The notes beneath the pieces were generated by a model, which worked only from the letters and a program-made list of their open reading frames with translations, was not told the origin of the DNA and did not search any database. The translations under genes and the position numbers were made by a program. From UHGV virus genome UHGV-0767307: a stretch of DNA of 10,151 bases; one strand, 5' to 3'. The stretch comes from a virus. This document shows positions 1 to 10,151 of this stretch, in pieces (position 1 is the stretch's first letter; each line of letters begins with the position of its first letter).

Positions 1-199
1 ACGAATACACCGGTAACGGCGTTACGACATCGTTTCCGTATACTTTTCGAATTTTGATGTTACACAAGCGAGAAAACTTGATAAAAAAGGCTGGAACAAA
101 AAGGGGCTGTATTCAATACAGACCCCTGGTGGAATACAAGAACTATCCATCGTTTCAGAATCAGGTCTCTACATCCTTATTCTGCGTTGCAAAGAGGCA

Positions 200-634
200 A
201 TGACTGAGGGAACGAGAGCATTCAGATTTCTTGAATGGGTTACAGGTGAGGTTCTTCCTCAGATCCGCCGCACCGGAAGTTACATTAAAAACTCGCTCCC
301 GCAGGAAGAACGCATAAAGATGGTTGCCGACCAGGTAGCCAACGCCACGGCGTCAGCAGTAATGCAGGCAATGAAGATAGAGAACAAAACCTACAGTGCC
401 CCGCTGAAGCCCGGCTACCGCAGCCTGATTCATTCGCCGTCTGGTGTTCTCGGCCTGACGGAGAACTCACTGCTGATGAATCTGCTGAACCAGTTACAGG
501 ACGACGGGCACGACGTATCGGGCGCGGCGGCGGAGCTGACCACCATGTTCTGCTACATCGTCGGTGTGAGTAAATGCCTGCGTGATATCCAGACTCACGC
601 GGAGTACATCAACGACAAAGCAGGATTCTTCTGA
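200..634 (+). CDS. Bro-N-like antirepressor-family protein, probably N-terminally truncated (144 aa from the only in-frame ATG)
   Basis: ORF 200..634. The translation across the start (..ELSIVSESGLYILILRCKEA-MTEGTRAFRFLEWVTGEVLPQIRRTGSY..) matches the conserved C-terminal end of Bro-N domains (ESGLY...A..F..WV..VLP.IR..G.Y pattern, recalled, not searched). The frame is open upstream only to a TAA at 14-16, and there is no ATG/GTG/TTG in frame between 17 and 199. A hairpin follows the stop. Confidence 0.55.
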   Translation: MTEGTRAFRFLEWVTGEVLPQIRRTGSYIKNSLPQEERIKMVADQVANATASAVMQAMKIENKTYSAPLKPGYRSLIHSPSGVLGLTENSLLMNLLNQLQDDGHDVSGAAAELTTMFCYIVGVSKCLRDIQTHAEYINDKAGFF

Positions 635-1709: not shown

Positions 1710-2159
1710 CTACTTGCGAAATCTTTCTTTACCCTTCCAGCCAGTAGATGTTAGTTCAGGATGAATGGTTCCCAATATAAAGCCAACCATAGCGGAGCGA
1801 GGATCTTCTATTTTATCCGTTAATTCTTCGGCATAACTCACAGGCAACCAAGCAACAAGATCACCAATCCTCAGCTTTGGTCCTTTGCTGTAAGATGAAT
1901 CGGCAATAACAAAAAATCCACCATCAGCTGAGCACACCTTCAGCATTGCCCTTTGTCTTCCAGAATCTAGCAAAACTGGCTGTTCCCCACTTGGACCAGG
2001 TATGATGATGGCTGGCATTGGTTTATTGGCTGAAAGGCTTGTGTCAAGATACTTACACGCATACTCAAAAGCTGAAAAGTTATCCTTAAAGATAAGAGGT
2101 TGAATTTTATTGCTAACCTCCTTACCACCGATTAATCTGTTGATCATCTTCTTGAACAT
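1710..2159 (-). CDS. Hypothetical protein, 149 aa, cytoplasmic-looking, unknown function
   Basis: Minus-strand ORF with stop at 1710-1712. The track starts at GTG 2166-2168, but the in-frame ATG at 2157-2159 is preceded by AGGTGA with a 5-nt spacer, and the GGTGA is built from that GTG, so ATG 2159 is preferred. GC about 40%. Protein MFKKMINRLIGG...; no motif recognised. Confidence 0.6.
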   Translation of the reverse strand: MFKKMINRLIGGKEVSNKIQPLIFKDNFSAFEYACKYLDTSLSANKPMPAIIIPGPSGEQPVLLDSGRQRAMLKVCSADGGFFVIADSSYSKGPKLRIGDLVAWLPVSYAEELTDKIEDPRSAMVGFILGTIHPELTSTGWKGKERFRK

Positions 2160-2171
2160 AAAGGTCACCTA

Positions 2172-2612
2172 ATGATTAAGCCGATGCACGCTATTACAGC
2201 TACCGTTTTGTTTATCCTACCAATTTTTTTGTTTGCAAACGACATATGTTTTAAGAATTTAATAAATGAGGATATGTGTGCACATGCAAACAAAATTGCA
2301 TCAGAAGCAGGAAAGTCACTTCCCATAAAATTGAATGATAATATGTCTATTGTTTCAATAAATGCAATACTAAACAAACTTTTAGTTGTAGCGCATCTTA
2401 ATTACAACAACAGCTATTTATCAAAAGTTTATAACGGTGATGTAACCTTAGAAAATAAATTAAAGAGTGTAATGCGAAATTATTCAAAATCGAGCATTTG
2501 CTCCAACAGGCAAATGAAAGCATTTATTCACCTTGGCGGAGAGATTGAATATAGGTATGTATTTAGTGATGGCAATATATTTGATACATACGCCATCACT
2601 AATTGTGAATAG
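2172..2612 (+). CDS. Secreted or membrane-anchored protein, 146 aa, AT-rich moron gene of unknown function
   Basis: ORF 2172..2612 at roughly 30-32% GC. A 146-codon open frame is very unlikely by chance at that composition (rough estimate P about 1e-5). The N-terminus MIKPMHAITATVLFILPIFLFA is a signal peptide or signal anchor. The protein is Asn/Lys/Ile-rich with 4 Cys. Its TAG stop (2610-2612) abuts the stop of the convergent 2613.. gene. Confidence 0.7.
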   Translation: MIKPMHAITATVLFILPIFLFANDICFKNLINEDMCAHANKIASEAGKSLPIKLNDNMSIVSINAILNKLLVVAHLNYNNSYLSKVYNGDVTLENKLKSVMRNYSKSSICSNRQMKAFIHLGGEIEYRYVFSDGNIFDTYAITNCE

Positions 2613-5324
2613 CTATTTCATCTGCTCTTCAACTTTATTTAGTAACGGTGATATCGCCCACAGGTTCTGAAAAGGTAGCATTTTACGGACCGCGTGGGTT
2701 TGCTGGCTGTCAAATTCTCCGTTAAGTACACCATTCGCAACCGTCGCGGCATCACCGCCAAGATCAAAGGTAGGACCAAGTAAAGCACCAATAGCATTAC
2801 GACTCTGAAACCTTGATACCGGAGGCGCACCAAACATCGCGCCAAGACCAAACCTACCGCCGCTTATGTTCTCAACGGTATTCAGCGGCTCAGAGAGCCA
2901 GCCAAGCATTCCGCCCCGGTCGATCCCCTCTTTCACAAGGTTATTCCAGCTGTAGTCGATATCGCGACCGCTTAACTTCTGTTTCATCATATAGACCATT
3001 GAGCCAAGCGCAATCGTGCCAAGCGCACCAAGATAGAATGCAGCATCGCCCTGCTGGATACCAGATACTAGCACCCTGTTATGCTGTGCGAAGATAAACG
3101 TTTTGAACTGCGTGATCATCTTCCAGCCTTCTTTACTAAAAAACAGCGGTGTATCACCTACGCCAGGCGTTACAATCACTGAGTCTACATCTTTCAGCAC
3201 TGCAGACTGGAAAATCTCTCTAGCGAAACGGTCATCCCACAGATGACTATGCCCGGTTAACAGCCCGTCCATATCCTCTCCGTGCTCCCCGAATTGCTCC
3301 CCGATTCGGCGCAGAACATCTTCATTGATGCCGACCTGTGCCATCTTCCGCATTTCACTTTTGGAGAGCGTGCCACCAGCAGAAACTTGGCGAGCCGCGT
3401 CAAGTATCCTCGACTGCACTATCATCCCGGACCATGATTTAAGTGCGCTGTTCCACTGATTCATCAGCGTCCAGTTACCGAATTTCTGCGTCATCCAGTT
3501 CAGACCTCGCTCAGCGGCGCTTCTCCGGCTATAGGGGTCAGTAAGATCCGCTATAGCCTTTGTACGCGTAGACAGGACATAATCAAGCCCAACGGCCATT
3601 TCTCGCAAATCCCTGGTTGCAATTTTCACTGAGTCCATATTTTTAAGCATGCTTACCATTGGTCCGAGAGATTTTCTCAGGCCATGCTGCATCATCGGTC
3701 GCATCAGATCAGTTGCAGCGGAGACAGTCATTCCACCAAGCAAACGGAGGAAGTTAATATTCCTAGCAACTCGCCCGGCACGAACAAAGAAACTGCGTGG
3801 ATCTTGAGGTGCACCGTAAGTACCAAGCAGTCGATCACGCATAGCCGTAATATCCCTAATATCAGCCTCCCGTTGCTTCTCAAGAACTGCACGTCGTTTA
3901 GGTGTTTTAGCCTCTTTTATTAGCCGGGTATATTCCTCACTAACCTGACGGATTTGCTCCCCCATATCTTTACGGCCAAACTGCGCAGTCAGCTCAATTT
4001 CTGGTGCCACCTGCCGGAGATAACTTTCCATGATGTAGTTAACATCTGATTCAAGAAAATCTTCTATACGCTCATCAGGAATAAGCAGCGTTCTGCTTTT
4101 AGTGAAACCAGCCCGACCAACGAGTCTCTCTGGGATAATATCGGCTGGTACAAGCCCGGAAGGTGCGCCTATTATTTTATTCACGATCTCGTCAGCAGCG
4201 TCCTCTGCTTCCTCTCGGGATAGAGGCTCCATCTGCTTCAGTGCTCGTTCGCGGCTTGCATTCAGCCTTGTGGTTGAATTTGCCCGTTTTTGCAGTCGGC
4301 GAAGCTCAGAACGATATTTCCGTGGATTATCCAGCAACTCCATATGGCGCTGATAGACAGGAAGCTCACTCTTTGCCTGCGCTATATCATCAAGGCGTGT
4401 TTTAAGGTCAGAGCTTTCTTTCATCATTCTTGCCTGAAGTTTTTCTGATGAAGTCTCGGCCAACTCTTTTTCTATTCTTGTAAGACGCGCCTGTGTGTCA
4501 GTCTCCTGAGATATAAGCTTATTTCGTTTATCCAGTTCTTCCATGAGTAGAATTTTTTTACCAGACCATTTCTCCGCTTCAGCGATTTCACTAGCGAGAG
4601 CATCAGCGCGCGGTGCCGATTCCTCTGCAGTTTTTAGCAATGAATTTATCCTTTCAATTCGCTGACCTGCTTTGTCAGCACCTTTGGCACTAATCCCTTG
4701 TATCCAGTTGGCAATTCGCCCTCTGAATTCAGTGCGGTCGGAAAGTATCTTATCGAACTTATAAATGCGGGGAAGATAACTTTTCGCCGTCACGACATCG
4801 ATATCCTCAGGAAGGATCCCCAGTTCCTGCATACGGGCTTTTGTGGTCTCGAAAATGGGGCGGATTCTGGCGGCTGCTTGTGAAACCTCAGGAATATCAC
4901 TCTGATCACCACGGCGCATAGCCATGCCAACAGCTTCATTGAAATCAATAAAGTTCATCCTCTTCACGCCGCGGGCGCTAACAGATTTGCTGTACTGCTG
5001 GTAAGCATCACGAGTGGCTTCCATCTGCTTATAAAGCATGGCGTCGTATTGCTTAATCTTAGTCTCGACTGCCGTAAACGTAGCCAACCCCTCATCATTT
5101 TTGGCGAAGAAATAGTTATTTTCGGCAAGCTGCTGGTTAATCTGACGGGAGACAAGAGATGGTGATTGAGCCAAGCGGCCAGCAGGAGTGACACTCAACG
5201 TTTTGTTAGCAAGTCCAAGTCCAGCGAGCTGTTCCTGATCGAGTGTGGTATTGAAAACCTGAGCTGCACCAATGCTTTGAGGAGAATCCATACCTCGCAA
5301 ATGATTACCTACTGAGTTAACCAC
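2613..5324 (-). CDS. C-terminal portion (903-codon ORF) of a large internal-virion / ejection-like protein gene split by a tandem duplication
   Basis: The open frame 2613..5324 begins at GTG 5322-5324 (first ATG at 5289-5291), neither with a convincing Shine-Dalgarno. Its first 188 residues are identical to the last residues of ORF 5392..6657 because of the 655-bp repeat. Removing one copy joins the two ORFs in frame. It contains a long charged coiled-coil-like region (..ELDKRNKLISQETDTQARLTRIEKELAETSSEKLQARMMKESSDLKTRLDD..) and a Gly-rich C-terminal end. Confidence 0.7.
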   Translation of the reverse strand: MVNSVGNHLRGMDSPQSIGAAQVFNTTLDQEQLAGLGLANKTLSVTPAGRLAQSPSLVSRQINQQLAENNYFFAKNDEGLATFTAVETKIKQYDAMLYKQMEATRDAYQQYSKSVSARGVKRMNFIDFNEAVGMAMRRGDQSDIPEVSQAAARIRPIFETTKARMQELGILPEDIDVVTAKSYLPRIYKFDKILSDRTEFRGRIANWIQGISAKGADKAGQRIERINSLLKTAEESAPRADALASEIAEAEKWSGKKILLMEELDKRNKLISQETDTQARLTRIEKELAETSSEKLQARMMKESSDLKTRLDDIAQAKSELPVYQRHMELLDNPRKYRSELRRLQKRANSTTRLNASRERALKQMEPLSREEAEDAADEIVNKIIGAPSGLVPADIIPERLVGRAGFTKSRTLLIPDERIEDFLESDVNYIMESYLRQVAPEIELTAQFGRKDMGEQIRQVSEEYTRLIKEAKTPKRRAVLEKQREADIRDITAMRDRLLGTYGAPQDPRSFFVRAGRVARNINFLRLLGGMTVSAATDLMRPMMQHGLRKSLGPMVSMLKNMDSVKIATRDLREMAVGLDYVLSTRTKAIADLTDPYSRRSAAERGLNWMTQKFGNWTLMNQWNSALKSWSGMIVQSRILDAARQVSAGGTLSKSEMRKMAQVGINEDVLRRIGEQFGEHGEDMDGLLTGHSHLWDDRFAREIFQSAVLKDVDSVIVTPGVGDTPLFFSKEGWKMITQFKTFIFAQHNRVLVSGIQQGDAAFYLGALGTIALGSMVYMMKQKLSGRDIDYSWNNLVKEGIDRGGMLGWLSEPLNTVENISGGRFGLGAMFGAPPVSRFQSRNAIGALLGPTFDLGGDAATVANGVLNGEFDSQQTHAVRKMLPFQNLWAISPLLNKVEEQMK

Positions 5325-5411
5325 TGCCTCGCGCGCGCTAGGTCCAGCAAGTAGCTGTGCACCAGCACCAAGGATCCCACCAACGAGAGCATCAACAACA
5401 ACGTTCGATAC
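4757..5411. repeat. Tandem direct repeat, copy A (655 bp)
   Basis: Identical to 5412-6066 wherever I compared the two copies in 60-nt blocks across the whole unit. Flanking bases differ (4756 A vs 5411 C; 5412 A vs 6067 G), so the boundaries are exact and the copies sit head-to-tail with no spacer. Confidence 0.9.
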
Positions 5412-6657
5412 ACTTATAAATGCGGGGAAGATAACTTTTCGCCGTCACGACATCGATATCCTCAGGAAGGATCCCCAGTTCCTGCATACGGGCTTTTGTG
5501 GTCTCGAAAATGGGGCGGATTCTGGCGGCTGCTTGTGAAACCTCAGGAATATCACTCTGATCACCACGGCGCATAGCCATGCCAACAGCTTCATTGAAAT
5601 CAATAAAGTTCATCCTCTTCACGCCGCGGGCGCTAACAGATTTGCTGTACTGCTGGTAAGCATCACGAGTGGCTTCCATCTGCTTATAAAGCATGGCGTC
5701 GTATTGCTTAATCTTAGTCTCGACTGCCGTAAACGTAGCCAACCCCTCATCATTTTTGGCGAAGAAATAGTTATTTTCGGCAAGCTGCTGGTTAATCTGA
5801 CGGGAGACAAGAGATGGTGATTGAGCCAAGCGGCCAGCAGGAGTGACACTCAACGTTTTGTTAGCAAGTCCAAGTCCAGCGAGCTGTTCCTGATCGAGTG
5901 TGGTATTGAAAACCTGAGCTGCACCAATGCTTTGAGGAGAATCCATACCTCGCAAATGATTACCTACTGAGTTAACCACTGCCTCGCGCGCGCTAGGTCC
6001 AGCAAGTAGCTGTGCACCAGCACCAAGGATCCCACCAACGAGAGCATCAACAACAACGTTCGATACGCTCTCCATCGGTGAGCGAGCTTCCTGAGTGGCC
6101 TGTAATGCGGCTTCTGATACTCCCCCACCAGCAGCATTCGCCAGGGCAAAACGCCCTGCCGTCTCAGCAATACTTCCTCCACGCGCTACCGCCCCTACAG
6201 GGATAAACATTGCAGCCACATTAACCGGGTCTATCATTCCCATTGCTAAGCTTGAAATAGTACCAGCACCACCCATTTCAGATAGATATTCTCTATCTGT
6301 TCTTTGCTTATCGATTCGATGTTTAATTGCCATTGTTTCTTCATGCGAACCGGAGTTGATAAACGAATCTGCAAAATCTTCATAGCCTTTAATATCTGCT
6401 GCATCGTTATCAAATGGGTTATATCCTTCAACCCTGTCAAACTGACTGAAAGGAGCACTGGCAATAAAGCTACCCAGCGTGTTATCTATACGAAATGCTG
6501 CTTGTCTAGACCTTTGAACGCGTTGATCACTGGTAAATGGGTTCACAGCAGAAAGCAAAGAAGGTGTTTCCATATAGAAATTACTGTCATCAGGTGCTGC
6601 TATTTGCTGAATATCCTCGCCAAGCAACTCTTTAGGATCCTGTTCATATATCGGCAT
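5392..6657 (-). CDS. N-terminal portion (421-codon ORF) of the same large virion protein gene, ending prematurely just after the duplication junction
   Basis: ATG at 6655-6657 overlaps the TAA of the upstream 915-aa gene (TAATG). The frame runs through copy B, crosses the junction at 5411/5412 out of frame and stops after 6 aberrant codons (..YLPRIYK-CIERCC*). It contains Gly/Ala-rich hydrophobic segments (..GGAGTISSLAMGMIDPVNVAAMFIPVGAVARGG.., ..LVGGILGAGAQLLAG..), consistent with a membrane-interacting ejection protein. Confidence 0.7.
   Translation of the reverse strand: MPIYEQDPKELLGEDIQQIAAPDDSNFYMETPSLLSAVNPFTSDQRVQRSRQAAFRIDNTLGSFIASAPFSQFDRVEGYNPFDNDAADIKGYEDFADSFINSGSHEETMAIKHRIDKQRTDREYLSEMGGAGTISSLAMGMIDPVNVAAMFIPVGAVARGGSIAETAGRFALANAAGGGVSEAALQATQEARSPMESVSNVVVDALVGGILGAGAQLLAGPSAREAVVNSVGNHLRGMDSPQSIGAAQVFNTTLDQEQLAGLGLANKTLSVTPAGRLAQSPSLVSRQINQQLAENNYFFAKNDEGLATFTAVETKIKQYDAMLYKQMEATRDAYQQYSKSVSARGVKRMNFIDFNEAVGMAMRRGDQSDIPEVSQAAARIRPIFETTKARMQELGILPEDIDVVTAKSYLPRIYKCIERCC
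5412..6066. repeat. Tandem direct repeat, copy B (655 bp)
   Basis: Second copy of the 655-bp unit. 655 = 3x218+1, so reading through both copies shifts the frame by +1. The track ORFs 4964..5194 and 5619..5849 are identical 76-aa by-products of the repeat. Confidence 0.9.
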
Positions 6658-9404
6658 TATTTGCCCCCTGCGTATATATTGCTCGGAAGGTAATTGGCTG
6701 AACCATAACCGAATGGTTTGGTCAGATCTGGAGGAGTATATCCATCTTTATTGCTGAACTGCGGCAGCGGATTGCCTTCTCTCCGCACTCTAGCCTCATC
6801 AACACGTTGTTGCTGGAACTGAATGGTTTGCCTGTACATTGGAGATGTCAGCTGATCCGGCTTGAAACGAACAGGGAGACCATTTTCTCCAATATAATTT
6901 CTCGGTTCTATCGCTCCGTTTGCGTCAGGCTGTAAAACCATAACAGCATAACTCCTATCCCTTGCCGTAAGGCCATCAGAAACAAGTATTAAGTCCGTAT
7001 CACTGCGAGGACCGCCAAAGGATTTTGATTTAAGCTCGCGTTTTTCCTGCTCCCACTGCCCCTGTATCCAGTTACCAGCACCATTATTTACTCCGTACAA
7101 TGCCTCAGGTGCATACTTCATAACCTCTGCTTTGCCATTAACCGTAGAAACTCCCCAGGTGGTTCTGATCATGGCATTGGTCATTTTCTCAGCCTGTTCT
7201 GCATCGCCACCTGTCTGTACAAAGTTAGCATCGTAAATTGTCTGGTAATCTCGCTGATAGGCCGCATTTGATTTTCCTGGATCGGTAATATCCGGAGACC
7301 ACGAACCAAAGGAAGTCAGACTGCTGGCGTTATTTTGTGCAGCAGTTGCCCTCGCCGCGACATATTTTTTGTCTCGCATGGCAGTGGAAAGCATCTGTTT
7401 CATTCGGTCATCCTGTTGGAACACCTGGCTGTAAGCCATATCAACAGCCTTATCCTCCGGCACGCCAGCGCGGGAATAATCGTAAACCTTGCCGTAAAAT
7501 GCCATCGTACTTTTATCAAGTGTTGCCGCTGCCGCCGGATTATTATCGAATAACTGACCGTAGAATTTTGCCATCGGGACAACCAGCGCAGGATCTCTTG
7601 ATGTTGCTCCACTGTTAAGCATTGTTTTAACCTGAGTTGGTATCATGCCGCTTTTAGTTGTGACGGTGACCAGTGTATTGATGCTCTGCGGATCAGATAT
7701 GGAAAACGAAGGCGCGATATCCTGCGCGAAATAACGGTCTACCGCTGCCTGATTGTTTTTGTCGTTCGGGTCCAGCGGGAAGTTATTTTGCATTGAAGAC
7801 ACGAACCTGTTTCTTCCCTGCTGAATCTCCCACTCCCTATCCATCTCTTTAAATTTGGCCTGCATTTTCTCCCAGCGTTGCTGGTTAGCTGCAAATCCAG
7901 GAGCGTTTGGATCCTGTGGACGTAAACGTTCAAGAATGTCTTGTCGTCCTTCTGGAGTGAGGTCTTTAGCGGCACCAATGACACCTCCATATTGTATCTG
8001 CGCCTGCATATCCTTCCACTTCATAGCGCCAATGCGCGGACCATTGGCCCGGATAAAATCGTCCTCAGAAGGTAACTTCTCAGGTTTCAATCCTTCATCA
8101 AGGGCTGAATATGCATCTTTAACTACGGTGCTAAGCTGGTCCGCATACTGCTGGCGGTACTGATTTCTCAGCTCATTAGCCTGCCTCAATGCCTGTATTT
8201 GCATTTGAGGGCTCATAGCATCAAATGCCGCATTGCCCGTATAACGCTTAGGTGAATCAAGGTTAGTTAGACCAAGGGCTGCCGAGATACCAGTTTCAAG
8301 CTGTTCGGTGCTATAAGGCATACTGCCATTTTCGTGTTTAATAATCCCAGCACATAAAGCAGCTAGTGTCTTTGGGTTAGAGATATCAAGCTGATCATTC
8401 TCCCCAACACCAAGCTCACCACACAATGCCCTAATATAAGCATCAGTATTATTACCATCACTAGCCGGAGCATAGCGATTAACAATCTCGCTAACGGTGT
8501 CATAGCCTTGACGCTGGTAAGACAACATATTTTTACCCAACGCGCGGATTCCATGCTCAGGGGTAGCAAACGTTGCAAAACGTCCATCGCTACCGATCTG
8601 ACCTTCCCACGGGTTAGATTTGCTCGCTTCAATATTACCAGGGTTATTATTACGTAAACCACGAGCATCCAATGAATTACCATGTGATATTGCACGACTC
8701 ACACCATCAAGATCCCCTGGCTCTCCATTAACCTGAAGAAACTCGTTGTATTTTTGAGCGATATTTCCTATCCATGCTTGCTGCCCCATTTGTTCCTTGA
8801 GCTGAGTTTTCTGCTGAACACGCCACTCATCAGGAAGCCCATGCGCATCAGCGTATTGATCAATAGATTCAAATCGCTGCTTGGCTAAATCGACAAATGC
8901 TTGGTTATCGCTATATAGCCCCGCAGACTGAGTGACAGCCAATGCATTTCCTGACAAATACGTTTGATCTTGGAATTGCTGAAACTGCCCAACTTCATAT
9001 CGACGTGCCTGATTGTAATAAGACTGCATAGACTGCTGGAGTTGAAAGGATAATTTATTCCTTTCCTCACTTTCAGGAATTGAGCCTAATAATGCCTGAG
9101 CCCTTTCCTGCATATTTTTCATAACAGCGTCACTCTGACCAAGAGCGTTTTTACCCTGTTTAGAAATCAGCCCACTTTCAGGGTTGTTAATCTGGTCATC
9201 TGCAAATTGGTTAAATTGCAGTAACGCCTCCTGGGCCATAGCAACATTCGCTTTCTGCCTGGCTTCACCATATGCCACCGCATACTGATCTGCGACATTC
9301 GCCAGCACCTGACCTGCTTGAGGAACATCGAAGATCTGAAAACCACCGGTTTGCACACCACGACTTTGCACCTGGCGTCCGGATGTAGTAGGAACAACAG
9401 GCAT
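6657..9404 (-). CDS. Large virion protein, 915 aa (internal-virion / ejection-protein-like), with a central conserved-looking RNNNPGNI...W.G module
   Basis: Uninterrupted 2748-nt ORF. The ATG at 9402-9404 overlaps the TGA of the 191-aa gene (TGATG) and is preceded by a perfect AGGAGG (complement of 9410-9415). The stop overlaps the next ATG. The protein is Gln-rich with no recognisable enzymatic motif except the ..GLRNNNPGNIEASKSNPWEGQ..FATF..PEHGIRAL.. segment. The functional call is inferred from size and order. Confidence 0.85.
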   Translation of the reverse strand: MPVVPTTSGRQVQSRGVQTGGFQIFDVPQAGQVLANVADQYAVAYGEARQKANVAMAQEALLQFNQFADDQINNPESGLISKQGKNALGQSDAVMKNMQERAQALLGSIPESEERNKLSFQLQQSMQSYYNQARRYEVGQFQQFQDQTYLSGNALAVTQSAGLYSDNQAFVDLAKQRFESIDQYADAHGLPDEWRVQQKTQLKEQMGQQAWIGNIAQKYNEFLQVNGEPGDLDGVSRAISHGNSLDARGLRNNNPGNIEASKSNPWEGQIGSDGRFATFATPEHGIRALGKNMLSYQRQGYDTVSEIVNRYAPASDGNNTDAYIRALCGELGVGENDQLDISNPKTLAALCAGIIKHENGSMPYSTEQLETGISAALGLTNLDSPKRYTGNAAFDAMSPQMQIQALRQANELRNQYRQQYADQLSTVVKDAYSALDEGLKPEKLPSEDDFIRANGPRIGAMKWKDMQAQIQYGGVIGAAKDLTPEGRQDILERLRPQDPNAPGFAANQQRWEKMQAKFKEMDREWEIQQGRNRFVSSMQNNFPLDPNDKNNQAAVDRYFAQDIAPSFSISDPQSINTLVTVTTKSGMIPTQVKTMLNSGATSRDPALVVPMAKFYGQLFDNNPAAAATLDKSTMAFYGKVYDYSRAGVPEDKAVDMAYSQVFQQDDRMKQMLSTAMRDKKYVAARATAAQNNASSLTSFGSWSPDITDPGKSNAAYQRDYQTIYDANFVQTGGDAEQAEKMTNAMIRTTWGVSTVNGKAEVMKYAPEALYGVNNGAGNWIQGQWEQEKRELKSKSFGGPRSDTDLILVSDGLTARDRSYAVMVLQPDANGAIEPRNYIGENGLPVRFKPDQLTSPMYRQTIQFQQQRVDEARVRREGNPLPQFSNKDGYTPPDLTKPFGYGSANYLPSNIYAGGK

Positions 9405-9979
9405 CAGTAACCTCCTATTTTGAATCGGGAGTCAGAATTCATAAAACCTGAGTTAGATAACATTGGCGTCCCACCACTAGATGTACTTCCTTTAGAGAAC
9501 GGACTCCACGTCCCACCAAACATCTGGTACGCACCGTATGCCTTCAGAGGCGCAGTGAGCAATGTTGTTGCTGCTCCCACATTCCCCTGTTTACGGGCTG
9601 AACTGGCTTCTGCTTTATAGTTGGCAGCCTGAACCTGATAACCGTAAGCCTCGCGTTGCGCGTTATTCACCGTCGTCAGCGAATCAAGAGCGCCAAACTG
9701 GGCAGTGTCGCCAAATATATCCAGCGCGTTACCTGTAGATAAATCAGCGCCGGTAGCCCCCATTGTCGCTGCCTGTGTACCAAGCCGCTGTCGGGTCTCT
9801 CTGCGTCGTTGCTCAGCTTCAGCGTTACCTCTGTTTATTGCATCATTTGCCTGAGCTGTGGCTATATCTGCGTTCGCTTCTGCAACCTTCGAGGCATACT
9901 TTCCCTGTTGGTACTGGGTGTATGCCTGAATGCCACTCATGGCGAGCATTGCGCCACCAGCAATAACCGGATCGCACAT
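9404..9979 (-). CDS. Small virion-associated protein, 191 aa, with N-terminal hydrophobic segment and Ala/Gln-rich helical region
   Basis: ORF with ATG at 9977-9979 preceded by GGAGAG (5-6 nt spacer). N-terminus MCDPVIAGGAMLAMSGIQAY is hydrophobic, followed by an Ala/Gln/Asn-rich stretch and a Gly/Ser-rich C-terminus. Coupled to both neighbours by 1-nt stop/start overlaps. In position and size it is analogous to the small internal virion protein that precedes the two large ones in T7-like podoviruses (inference). Confidence 0.8.
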   Translation of the reverse strand: MCDPVIAGGAMLAMSGIQAYTQYQQGKYASKVAEANADIATAQANDAINRGNAEAEQRRRETRQRLGTQAATMGATGADLSTGNALDIFGDTAQFGALDSLTTVNNAQREAYGYQVQAANYKAEASSARKQGNVGAATTLLTAPLKAYGAYQMFGGTWSPFSKGSTSSGGTPMLSNSGFMNSDSRFKIGGY

Positions 9980-10151
9980 TATTTTCTCTCCATGTGAAAT
10001 CTGTGGAAATTAAGACCAAGAGCACCATAAGGCGCGGCTTCTTCAAGCCTGAATCCAAGCCAGTGCAGCCATGCTTTGGCAACATGGTTTCGCTCGTCGA
10101 CGTAGTTTTCCAGGCGCGGATAAACTGCCAGCATCTGCTGCAATACAGGGC
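9979..10151 (-). CDS. 3' end of an upstream minus-strand gene (last 56 codons; start lies beyond the window); C-terminus has a GNAT-like N..A.......GF motif
   Basis: Frame open from the window edge to TAA (complement of 9979-9981), which overlaps the ATG of the 191-aa gene (TAATG). My manual translation is ..PVLQQMLAVYPRLENYVDERNHVAKAWLHWLGFRLEEAAPYGALGLNFHRFHMERK*. The track misses it because it is under 60 aa from the first Met. The alternative frame (track ORF 9843..10085) is Cys/Trp-rich and overlaps the 191-aa gene, so this frame is preferred. Confidence 0.5.
   Translation of the reverse strand, partial: PVLQQMLAVYPRLENYVDERNHVAKAWLHWLGFRLEEAAPYGALGLNFHRFHMERK

Follow-up and report, generated by a model that had tools for sequence, protein, structure and literature searches.

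The locus analysed here raises the question of whether a perfect tandem duplication that splits a large virion gene in two is a genuine and very recent mutation of a phage or a product of amplification and assembly, and what it would do to the gene if it were genuine. The window, by which we mean the whole stretch of 10,151 bases, is part of an epsilon15/phiV10-like E. coli prophage, a temperate podophage; scans for Rfam families, tRNAs and defence systems over the window found nothing.

The two copies of the unit (Table 1) agree at every base (655 of 655) and lie adjacent, head to tail and in the same orientation. At an offset of 655 the run of identity is exactly 655, so that there are exactly two units, with a spacer of 0 and no microhomology extending either edge. 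A perfect and spacer-free duplication with abrupt divergence at both outer flanks had been claimed in the preliminary description of this DNA, and the exact comparison, which found no difference between the copies, bears this out. Chance is not a consideration, since the window contains no further repeat, direct or inverted, that reaches 20 nt. TRF reported nothing, its longest period being 500, which makes it blind to a duplication of 655 bp. Adjacent head-to-tail copies, a single-copy ancestral state and a new junction are all present, as in direct tandem duplication as a class of mutation.

Table 1. Coordinates of the features in the window; the junction sequence is given on the + strand
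Feature	Position	Strand	Remark
T7 gp14-family internal virion protein gene, intact, 191 aa	9404..9979	-	first in ejection operon
gp15-position gene, intact, 915 aa	6657..9404	-	upstream of disrupted gene; ORF calls and PHROG
Truncated N-terminal ORF, 421 codons	5392..6657	-	native residues 1-415 + CIERCC, then TGA
C-terminal remainder ORF, 903 codons	2613..5324	-	GTG 5324 (native V227); 895 codons if TTG 5300
Unit copy read first	5412..6066	-	in frame with native start codon 6657
Unit copy read second in gene direction	4757..5411	-	codons 198-415 + 1 nt, frame running to native stop 2613
Novel junction 5411/5412, ...CGTTCGATAC|ACTTATAAATGC...	5392..5431		contains TGA stop of shifted frame, 5394-5392
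TATCGAAC, left arm of 8-nt inverted repeat	4751..4758		straddles left breakpoint
GTTCGATA, right arm of 8-nt inverted repeat	6058..6065		ends 1 nt short of right breakpoint

Within 12 nt of the two breakpoints, direct matches do not exceed 4 nt. An inverted match as long as the 8-nt one listed in Table 1 would turn up in about 0.5% of breakpoint pairs placed at random; it is a post hoc observation of uncertain meaning. Because the breakpoints share no direct homology and the window holds no other repeat, we infer that the reads themselves contained the k-mers of the junction: reads from a single-copy template would give a de Bruijn graph without an edge from unit end to unit start. An assembler would traverse a loop of the duplication type for a fixed junction and for a minority variant alike.

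The disrupted gene spans 2613-6657, i.e. 4045 nt (3390 + 655). The duplicated part amounts to 218 codons and 1 nt, and, 655 not being divisible by 3, the reading frame shifts. The ORF calls agree with the preliminary description, both in the split into ORFs of 421 and 903 codons and in the end of the first ORF 6 codons past the junction. The ancestral gene, put there at about 1129 codons, has exactly 1129: when one copy was removed in silico, an ORF of this length was restored, 3 residues off a common E. coli allele. Hydrophobic segments lie at aa 134-163 and 197-221 of the 421-codon product. For the C-terminal remainder, the first candidate start is found 68 nt past the upstream stop, and the ENA contig annotation begins the ORF at TTG 5300. 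We found no well-spaced Shine-Dalgarno motif before any of its candidate starts; GAGG lies only 2 nt ahead of GTG 5324 and 1 nt ahead of ATG 5291, and a weak AGG lies 7 nt ahead of TTG 5300, so that the earlier statement that this ORF has no good ribosome-binding site was roughly right. The ATG overlapping the truncation stop (TGATG) is in the wrong frame. To judge from the sequence, expression of the C-terminal remainder is doubtful.

The disrupted gene is the third of an operon of the T7 gp14/gp15/gp16 type and, standing in the gp16 position, encodes a putative ejection protein. The product of the first gene matches PF24072 (T7_gp14) with 33.7 bits against a cut-off of 27, the PHROG matches of the 915-aa protein include an endolysin/transglycosylase-type region, and start and stop codons overlap along the order PF24072 gene, 915-aa gene, disrupted gene. 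With E=3.7e-177 and 1.6e-89, the two fragments of the disrupted gene match the PHROG 342 family ('internal virion protein with endolysin domain'), and the annotation of homologues likewise names them putative internal virion proteins. The putative gp16-like assignment of the 1129-aa protein rests on synteny and on PHROG 342, and this synteny fits the 'ejection-type protein' proposed at first sight (review PMC8954989). Two names attached to the gene product deserve a separate comment. DUF919 (PF06034) scores 23.4 bits on the 1129-aa protein against a gathering cut-off of 21, over 46 residues (aa 530-575) of a coiled-coil-like region; it is a baculovirus family and spans 4% of the protein, and the PGAP name 'DUF919 family protein' is therefore little informative. 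'Bro-N domain-containing protein', the cluster name of the 421-aa fragment, was rejected as a clustering quirk, a direct comparison having given no similarity.

All relatives examined appear to carry the unit in single copy. This holds for at least 120 complete E. coli genomes (among the matches listed), for phage EC.W1-9 and two Klebsiella phages, for 31 IMG/VR contigs, all with the native edge, and likewise for distant homologues in 68 phage records. The prophage gene is widespread in E. coli, being present in at least 120 of 5426 complete genomes (among the matches listed); in 120 of the 120 complete E. coli genomes among the matches listed the native left edge is uninterrupted, and the novel junction is absent from them. 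Intact orthologues form a single ORF of 1129 aa in EC.W1-9 and in E. coli prophages, and homologues in Vibrio, Alteromonas and other podophages are single ORFs of about 1000-1100 aa; no split version of the gene was seen among the relatives examined. Outside the duplication, only 4 mismatches in 8079 nt (99.95% identity) separate the locus from an intact prophage of a clinical E. coli genome; structurally, then, nothing but the duplication has changed, and the background is a contemporary one. A possible breakpoint hotspot, suggested by the protein P0013 (STN16661.1, 414 aa), which is truncated two codons away from this site, was rejected given the intact left edge in all 120 genomes listed, and that truncation is probably a coincidence or a sequencing error.

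A 40-mer and a 24-mer of the junction gave 0 matches in IMG/VR, JGI metagenomes and GTDB genomes, the last of which, with one genome per species, says little about variants of E. coli prophages. The duplication is also absent from all 20 contigs that share the flanking 144-aa ORF of the window (exact protein look-up), and the flanking 146-aa ORF had no entry in that look-up. The sole other carrier among the sequences searched is NODE_7 of ENA ERZ1024467, a SPAdes-style metagenome contig of 12,473 bp with a k-mer coverage of 9.78 (about 10x), which is 100% identical to the window where both overlap. Here the two copies are internal, with their first bases at 8610 and 9265, leaving about 8.6 kb of contig on one side and 2.5 kb on the other. 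A literature search for ERZ1024467 gave no match. The window runs 2.2 kb past the end of NODE_7 with a 100% match over the shared part; at least two contigs or assemblies thus arrived at the duplication, and they may come from the same reads and hence not be independent. The 421-aa and 895-aa proteins are each on record on one contig only.

We consider it probable, from the sequence comparisons above, that this is a genuine and very recent 655-bp direct tandem duplication in the gp16-position ejection-protein gene. It would have arisen within this gene by illegitimate, homology-independent recombination or by template switching, and would be carried by at least a substantial fraction of the sampled DNA molecules. 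Translation from the native start would halt after residue 415 and 6 foreign codons, the remaining 900-odd codons would have no good start site, and the full-length ejection protein would presumably not be made. Its loss would be neutral in a lysogen, which would allow the variant to reach assembly-level frequency, and the duplication might represent an ordinary first step of prophage decay. It is established genetics that tandem duplications revert by recombination between the copies. Here, RecA- or phage-mediated recombination between the identical copies would precisely restore the wild-type gene; given this precise reversion, the defect would be unstable and reversible rather than permanent. 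On balance we favor a mutation that is both neutral and reversible as part of this reading. The preliminary description had spoken of the probable inactivation of an essential protein; permanence does not follow from this, since the duplication can revert. Both of the explanations it offered, that the event is real and recent or that it is an artefact, are still live; the latter survives in its read-level form, and a pure graph-traversal form does not, the junction being new sequence.

It is possible, although in our view not the likelier course of events, that the junction arose in the reads. In vitro, a chimeric molecule would then have formed in which the unit's end runs directly into its start, the real genome being single-copy and the gene intact. 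The source might be template switching during amplification, by multiple displacement or by PCR, or else a 655-bp fragment that self-ligated and was copied as a rolling circle; the chimera would have been amplified clonally and the resulting loop traversed once by the assembler. Zero divergence between the copies is consistent with this, as are a junction known only from one SPAdes-style metagenome contig of about 10x and the identical window, and the apparent single-copy state of the relatives examined. The 8-nt inverted repeat at the breakpoints is the kind of short complementarity through which template-switch chimeras form. Moreover, NODE_7, at 12.5 kb, is already the 7th largest contig of its assembly, which points to a data set that is small or of virome type, where amplification would be frequent. 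However, any one random chimera is rare and would not normally pass the coverage filters of assemblers, so that an early-amplification jackpot would be needed. Amplification chimeras are mostly inverted, whereas the junction here is direct, and the duplication appears in two different contigs, though possibly from the same reads.

We regard as very improbable a reading in which a real duplication, frequent in a natural population of the phage or its lysogens, acts as a reversible on/off lesion of infectivity, or in which the overlapping fragments still assemble as a working split ejection protein. Were the on/off reading true, carrier particles or prophages would be dead ends up to the point at which the copies recombine and the gene is intact again. 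Hardly credible is a duplication tolerated or selected because an N fragment (aa 1-415, holding the two N-proximal hydrophobic segments) and a C fragment (from about aa 227-238 to 1129) form a working split protein. The two ORFs together do cover every native residue, the gene caller accepted the TTG start, and the N and C regions of T7 gp16 are separable (PMC8954989). Nevertheless, the relatives examined have no split gene, the second ORF has neither a well-spaced Shine-Dalgarno motif nor a stop-overlapping ATG in the right frame, and zero divergence together with a single occurrence speaks against any maintained state. The least credible account, an assembly-graph or pipeline error without junction reads, by mis-traversal of a pre-existing repeat or by an untrimmed 655-bp terminal overlap on circularising, is effectively refuted: although untrimmed overlaps yield perfect spacer-free duplications, nothing else supports it, the breakpoints hold no pre-existing direct repeat beyond 4 nt and the identity run is exactly 655, and the duplication is internal, not terminal, in the raw linear contig.

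The finding is ordinary, its importance being small beyond quality control. If real, it adds one more recent inactivating and revertible virion-gene mutation in a common E. coli prophage, and a prophage 99.95% identical to that of a clinical isolate would just have lost, perhaps temporarily, the production of infectious particles. If it is an artefact, a public metagenome assembly contains a mis-assembled region, and the proteins of 421 aa and 895 aa recorded from it are spurious. Either way, the locus should be annotated as one disrupted 1129-codon ejection-protein gene and not as two genes.

The closest counterparts of the disrupted gene product are WYA78243.1 of phage EC.W1-9 (PP445227) and, in prophages of E. 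coli and Klebsiella, the 'DUF919 family protein' (e.g. WP_461861978.1), with 97.7-99.7% protein identity and the same neighbor genes. Those orthologues are uninterrupted single-copy genes of 3390 nt, whereas the gene here carries 655 additional nucleotides and a frameshift. The operon resembles the ejectosome operons of T7, SP6 and K1E, with a 191-aa gp14-family protein, a 915-aa protein with a lysozyme/transglycosylase-like region and an 1129-aa protein in the same order. The sizes follow the SP6/K1E-type pattern, K1E having gp34 of 240 aa, gp35 of 982 aa with lysozyme activity and gp36 of 1102 aa (PMC8954989). Like the gp16-position proteins of these phages, the 1129-aa protein has hydrophobic segments near the N-terminal third and the C-terminus; no sequence likeness to T7 gp16 itself or to any solved structure was detectable among PDB sequences (best E=0.5, a lipase). 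As for the lesion, it is similar to the spontaneous homology-independent ('short-junction') tandem duplications of enterobacteria and phages, in which a sub-kilobase direct repeat has a new junction and little or no endpoint homology, zero divergence is seen and loss by recombination between the copies is expected. It differs from them in being known from assembled metagenome sequence and in the inverted, not direct, 8-nt repeat at its breakpoints. Disruption of a structural gene with intact neighbors also recalls prophage decay through inactivating virion-gene mutations; in contrast to the deletions and IS insertions that are typical of cryptic prophages, this lesion would be precisely revertible.

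The two copies of the 655-bp unit (4757-5411 and 5412-6066) carry the same base at 655 of 655 positions when the window is compared exactly with itself at an offset of 655, and the identity run at this offset is exactly 655 nt long. The unit thus occurs exactly twice, head to tail and without a spacer, and no additional bases are common to the edges, in agreement with the perfect tandem repeat reported in the preliminary description. The duplication is the sole direct or inverted repeat of at least 20 nt in the whole window; Tandem Repeats Finder did not report it, only because of its period limit of 500. An 8-nt inverted repeat is found at both breakpoints (TATCGAAC at 4751-4758, GTTCGATA at 6058-6065), a post hoc observation. 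Among random breakpoint pairs, about 0.5% have an inverted match of this length. The inverted repeat is consistent with template switching whether in vivo or in vitro, so it does not discriminate between a real duplication and an in-vitro chimera.

The unit corresponds to 218 codons plus 1 nt, from the first base of codon 198 through the first base of codon 416. Translation from the native ATG at 6657 shifts frame at the junction between the copies (5411|5412) and yields residues 1-415 followed by CIERCC and a TGA at 5394-5392, so that both the stop 6 codons beyond the junction and the split into ORFs of 421 and 903 codons were as previously described. The native frame is back in the second copy, where the earliest starts are GTG 5324 (V227), TTG 5300 (L235) and ATG 5291 (M238). 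GAGG lies only 2 nt upstream of the GTG and 1 nt upstream of the ATG, the TTG has only a weak AGG 7 nt upstream, and the ATG overlapping the stop (TGATG) leads into the third frame. The earlier statement that no good ribosome-binding site is present was essentially right and, given these start-site contexts, synthesis of the C-terminal 900 residues appears doubtful. Removal of one copy gives a 3390-nt ORF of exactly 1129 codons, the length proposed for the ancestral gene, with 3 residues differing from a common E. coli allele.

Ejection-operon genes and the two ORFs of the disrupted gene
Feature	Position	Strand	Size or family
191-aa T7 gp14-family protein	first in minus-strand order	-	PF24072
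915-aa protein with endolysin/transglycosylase-like region	second	-	PHROG 1044/873
Disrupted gene	third	-	PHROG 342 'internal virion protein'
N-terminal ORF	5392..6657	-	421 aa
C-terminal ORF	2613..5324	-	903 aa, GTG start

The window belongs to a temperate E. coli podophage of the epsilon15/phiV10-like type, and all relatives examined appear single-copy. Its best phage match, Escherichia phage EC.W1-9 (98.5% identity), has one CDS of 3390 nt, which bears out the expected single-ORF homologues in related phages. Of 5426 complete E. coli genomes, 120 carry a chromosomal prophage with the same region. In all matches listed among these 120, a 2001-nt query covers 1346 bp and the junction-spanning query breaks into two pieces; the native left edge (4756|4757) is unbroken in 120/120. 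The native 24-mer edge is present in 31 IMG/VR contigs and the junction 24-mer in 0, and the junction was not found in JGI metagenome contigs or GTDB genomes. Without one copy, the window matches the intact prophage of a Thai clinical E. coli isolate at 99.95% (4 mismatches in 8079 nt), indicating that the duplication is the sole structural difference, in a contemporary background.

The exact 421-aa truncated product is recorded on one contig only, ENA ERZ1024467 NODE_7_length_12473_cov_9.78 (NODE_7), where the 655-spaced repeat is also present, internally. Identity with the window is 100% over the entire overlap (2206-10151). NODE_7 stops at window 2206 and the window runs on to position 1; the source of the window is therefore another contig or assembly, for which the same reads may have been used. 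We consider it reasonably probable that the duplication is real in the sampled DNA, since lone chimeras seldom gain assembly-level support and the structure was rebuilt in two contigs. Since assemblers traverse the loop in both situations, such a duplication may be either fixed or confined to a sub-population. An in-vitro chimera, amplified clonally, is a possible explanation to which we give less credence for these same two reasons; low coverage, a single occurrence and an unspecified library preparation keep it in contention. Mis-traversal of the assembly graph would require a direct repeat already present at the unit ends, where direct matches reach at most 4 nt, and an untrimmed terminal overlap would place the copies at contig ends, whereas they are internal in raw NODE_7; with both rejected, the junction is inferred to be new sequence that the reads themselves contained. 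The event is of an ordinary kind, whether it is a tandem duplication of recent date that shifts the frame or an artefact of sequencing; the preliminary observation is confirmed and its interpretation supported.

Ejection proteins are needed for infectivity (PMC8954989), so particles from this genome, if the duplication is real, would probably be non-infectious. In a lysogen, loss of the ejection gene would be neutral, which would offer the simplest route to abundance of the variant. Tandem duplications are unstable and revert by recombination between copies. Recombination between the identical copies is predicted to restore the wild-type gene precisely, and the lesion would thus be unstable and reversible.

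An independent E. coli orthologue (P0013, STN16661.1, 5.07-Mb contig) ends prematurely at residue 414 (...YLPRII*), two codons off the junction (residue 415/416; window equivalent ~5415-5420 / 4760-4765). The probable cause is a coincidental indel, or an error of sequencing, close to the ATTTATAAG motif; a local fragile site may be responsible instead. The 421-aa fragment (P0001) falls in a 90%-identity cluster headed by a 234-aa representative, among whose listed members 231-aa 'Bro-N domain-containing' proteins predominate. Direct comparison with these 231-aa members revealed no similarity, and the membership is an artefact of clustering in the protein collection.

The BRO-N/antirepressor-like gene at window 1-634 (+) is incomplete, with a breakpoint near 45-47: similarity to the relatives' intact 230-aa gene begins only at 45, and bases 1-47 match relatives elsewhere in opposite orientation. 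A stop is found at 13-15, and the ORF as listed spans 200..634 (144 aa). The same 144-aa product occurs on 20 other contigs, in some next to a distinct 86-aa Bro-N ORF; the split is thus an inherited variant unlinked to the 655-bp duplication. A 210-aa ORF (781-1413, +; PHROG 1349, function not known) occupies the slot of a YafO-family toxin gene in the closest E. coli prophage, to which similarity is absent between 721 and 1418; the region from antirepressor to ejection operon is thus a swappable accessory cassette. Window 2001-2612 is a low-GC island (0.32 vs ~0.47 elsewhere) containing a 146-aa ORF (2172..2612, +; PHROG 8772, function not known) that converges on the ejection-gene stop codon and has the appearance of a moron-type accessory gene. 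No entry in the assembly collection matches the exact product of this ORF, and the break of NODE_7 at window 2206 falls inside it.

The intact orthologue of the disrupted gene is named 'DUF919 family protein' by PGAP, a name that tells little because it reflects a 46-residue match scoring 23.4 bits (cut-off 21). Solved structures gave no sequence match to the protein. Among phages, 68 records (Vibrio, Alteromonas, Pelagibacter and others) contain distant homologues, each a single ORF of comparable length; several are annotated as internal virion protein. By hydropathy analysis, the 1129-aa protein has three hydrophobic segments (aa 134-163, 197-221 and 987-1006), and the duplication start coincides exactly with the second. 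The gp14-gp15-gp16 layout of ejection-protein operons is known from podophages, and the gene order here is the same, with protein sizes nearest to the K1E/SP6 pattern (PMC8954989).
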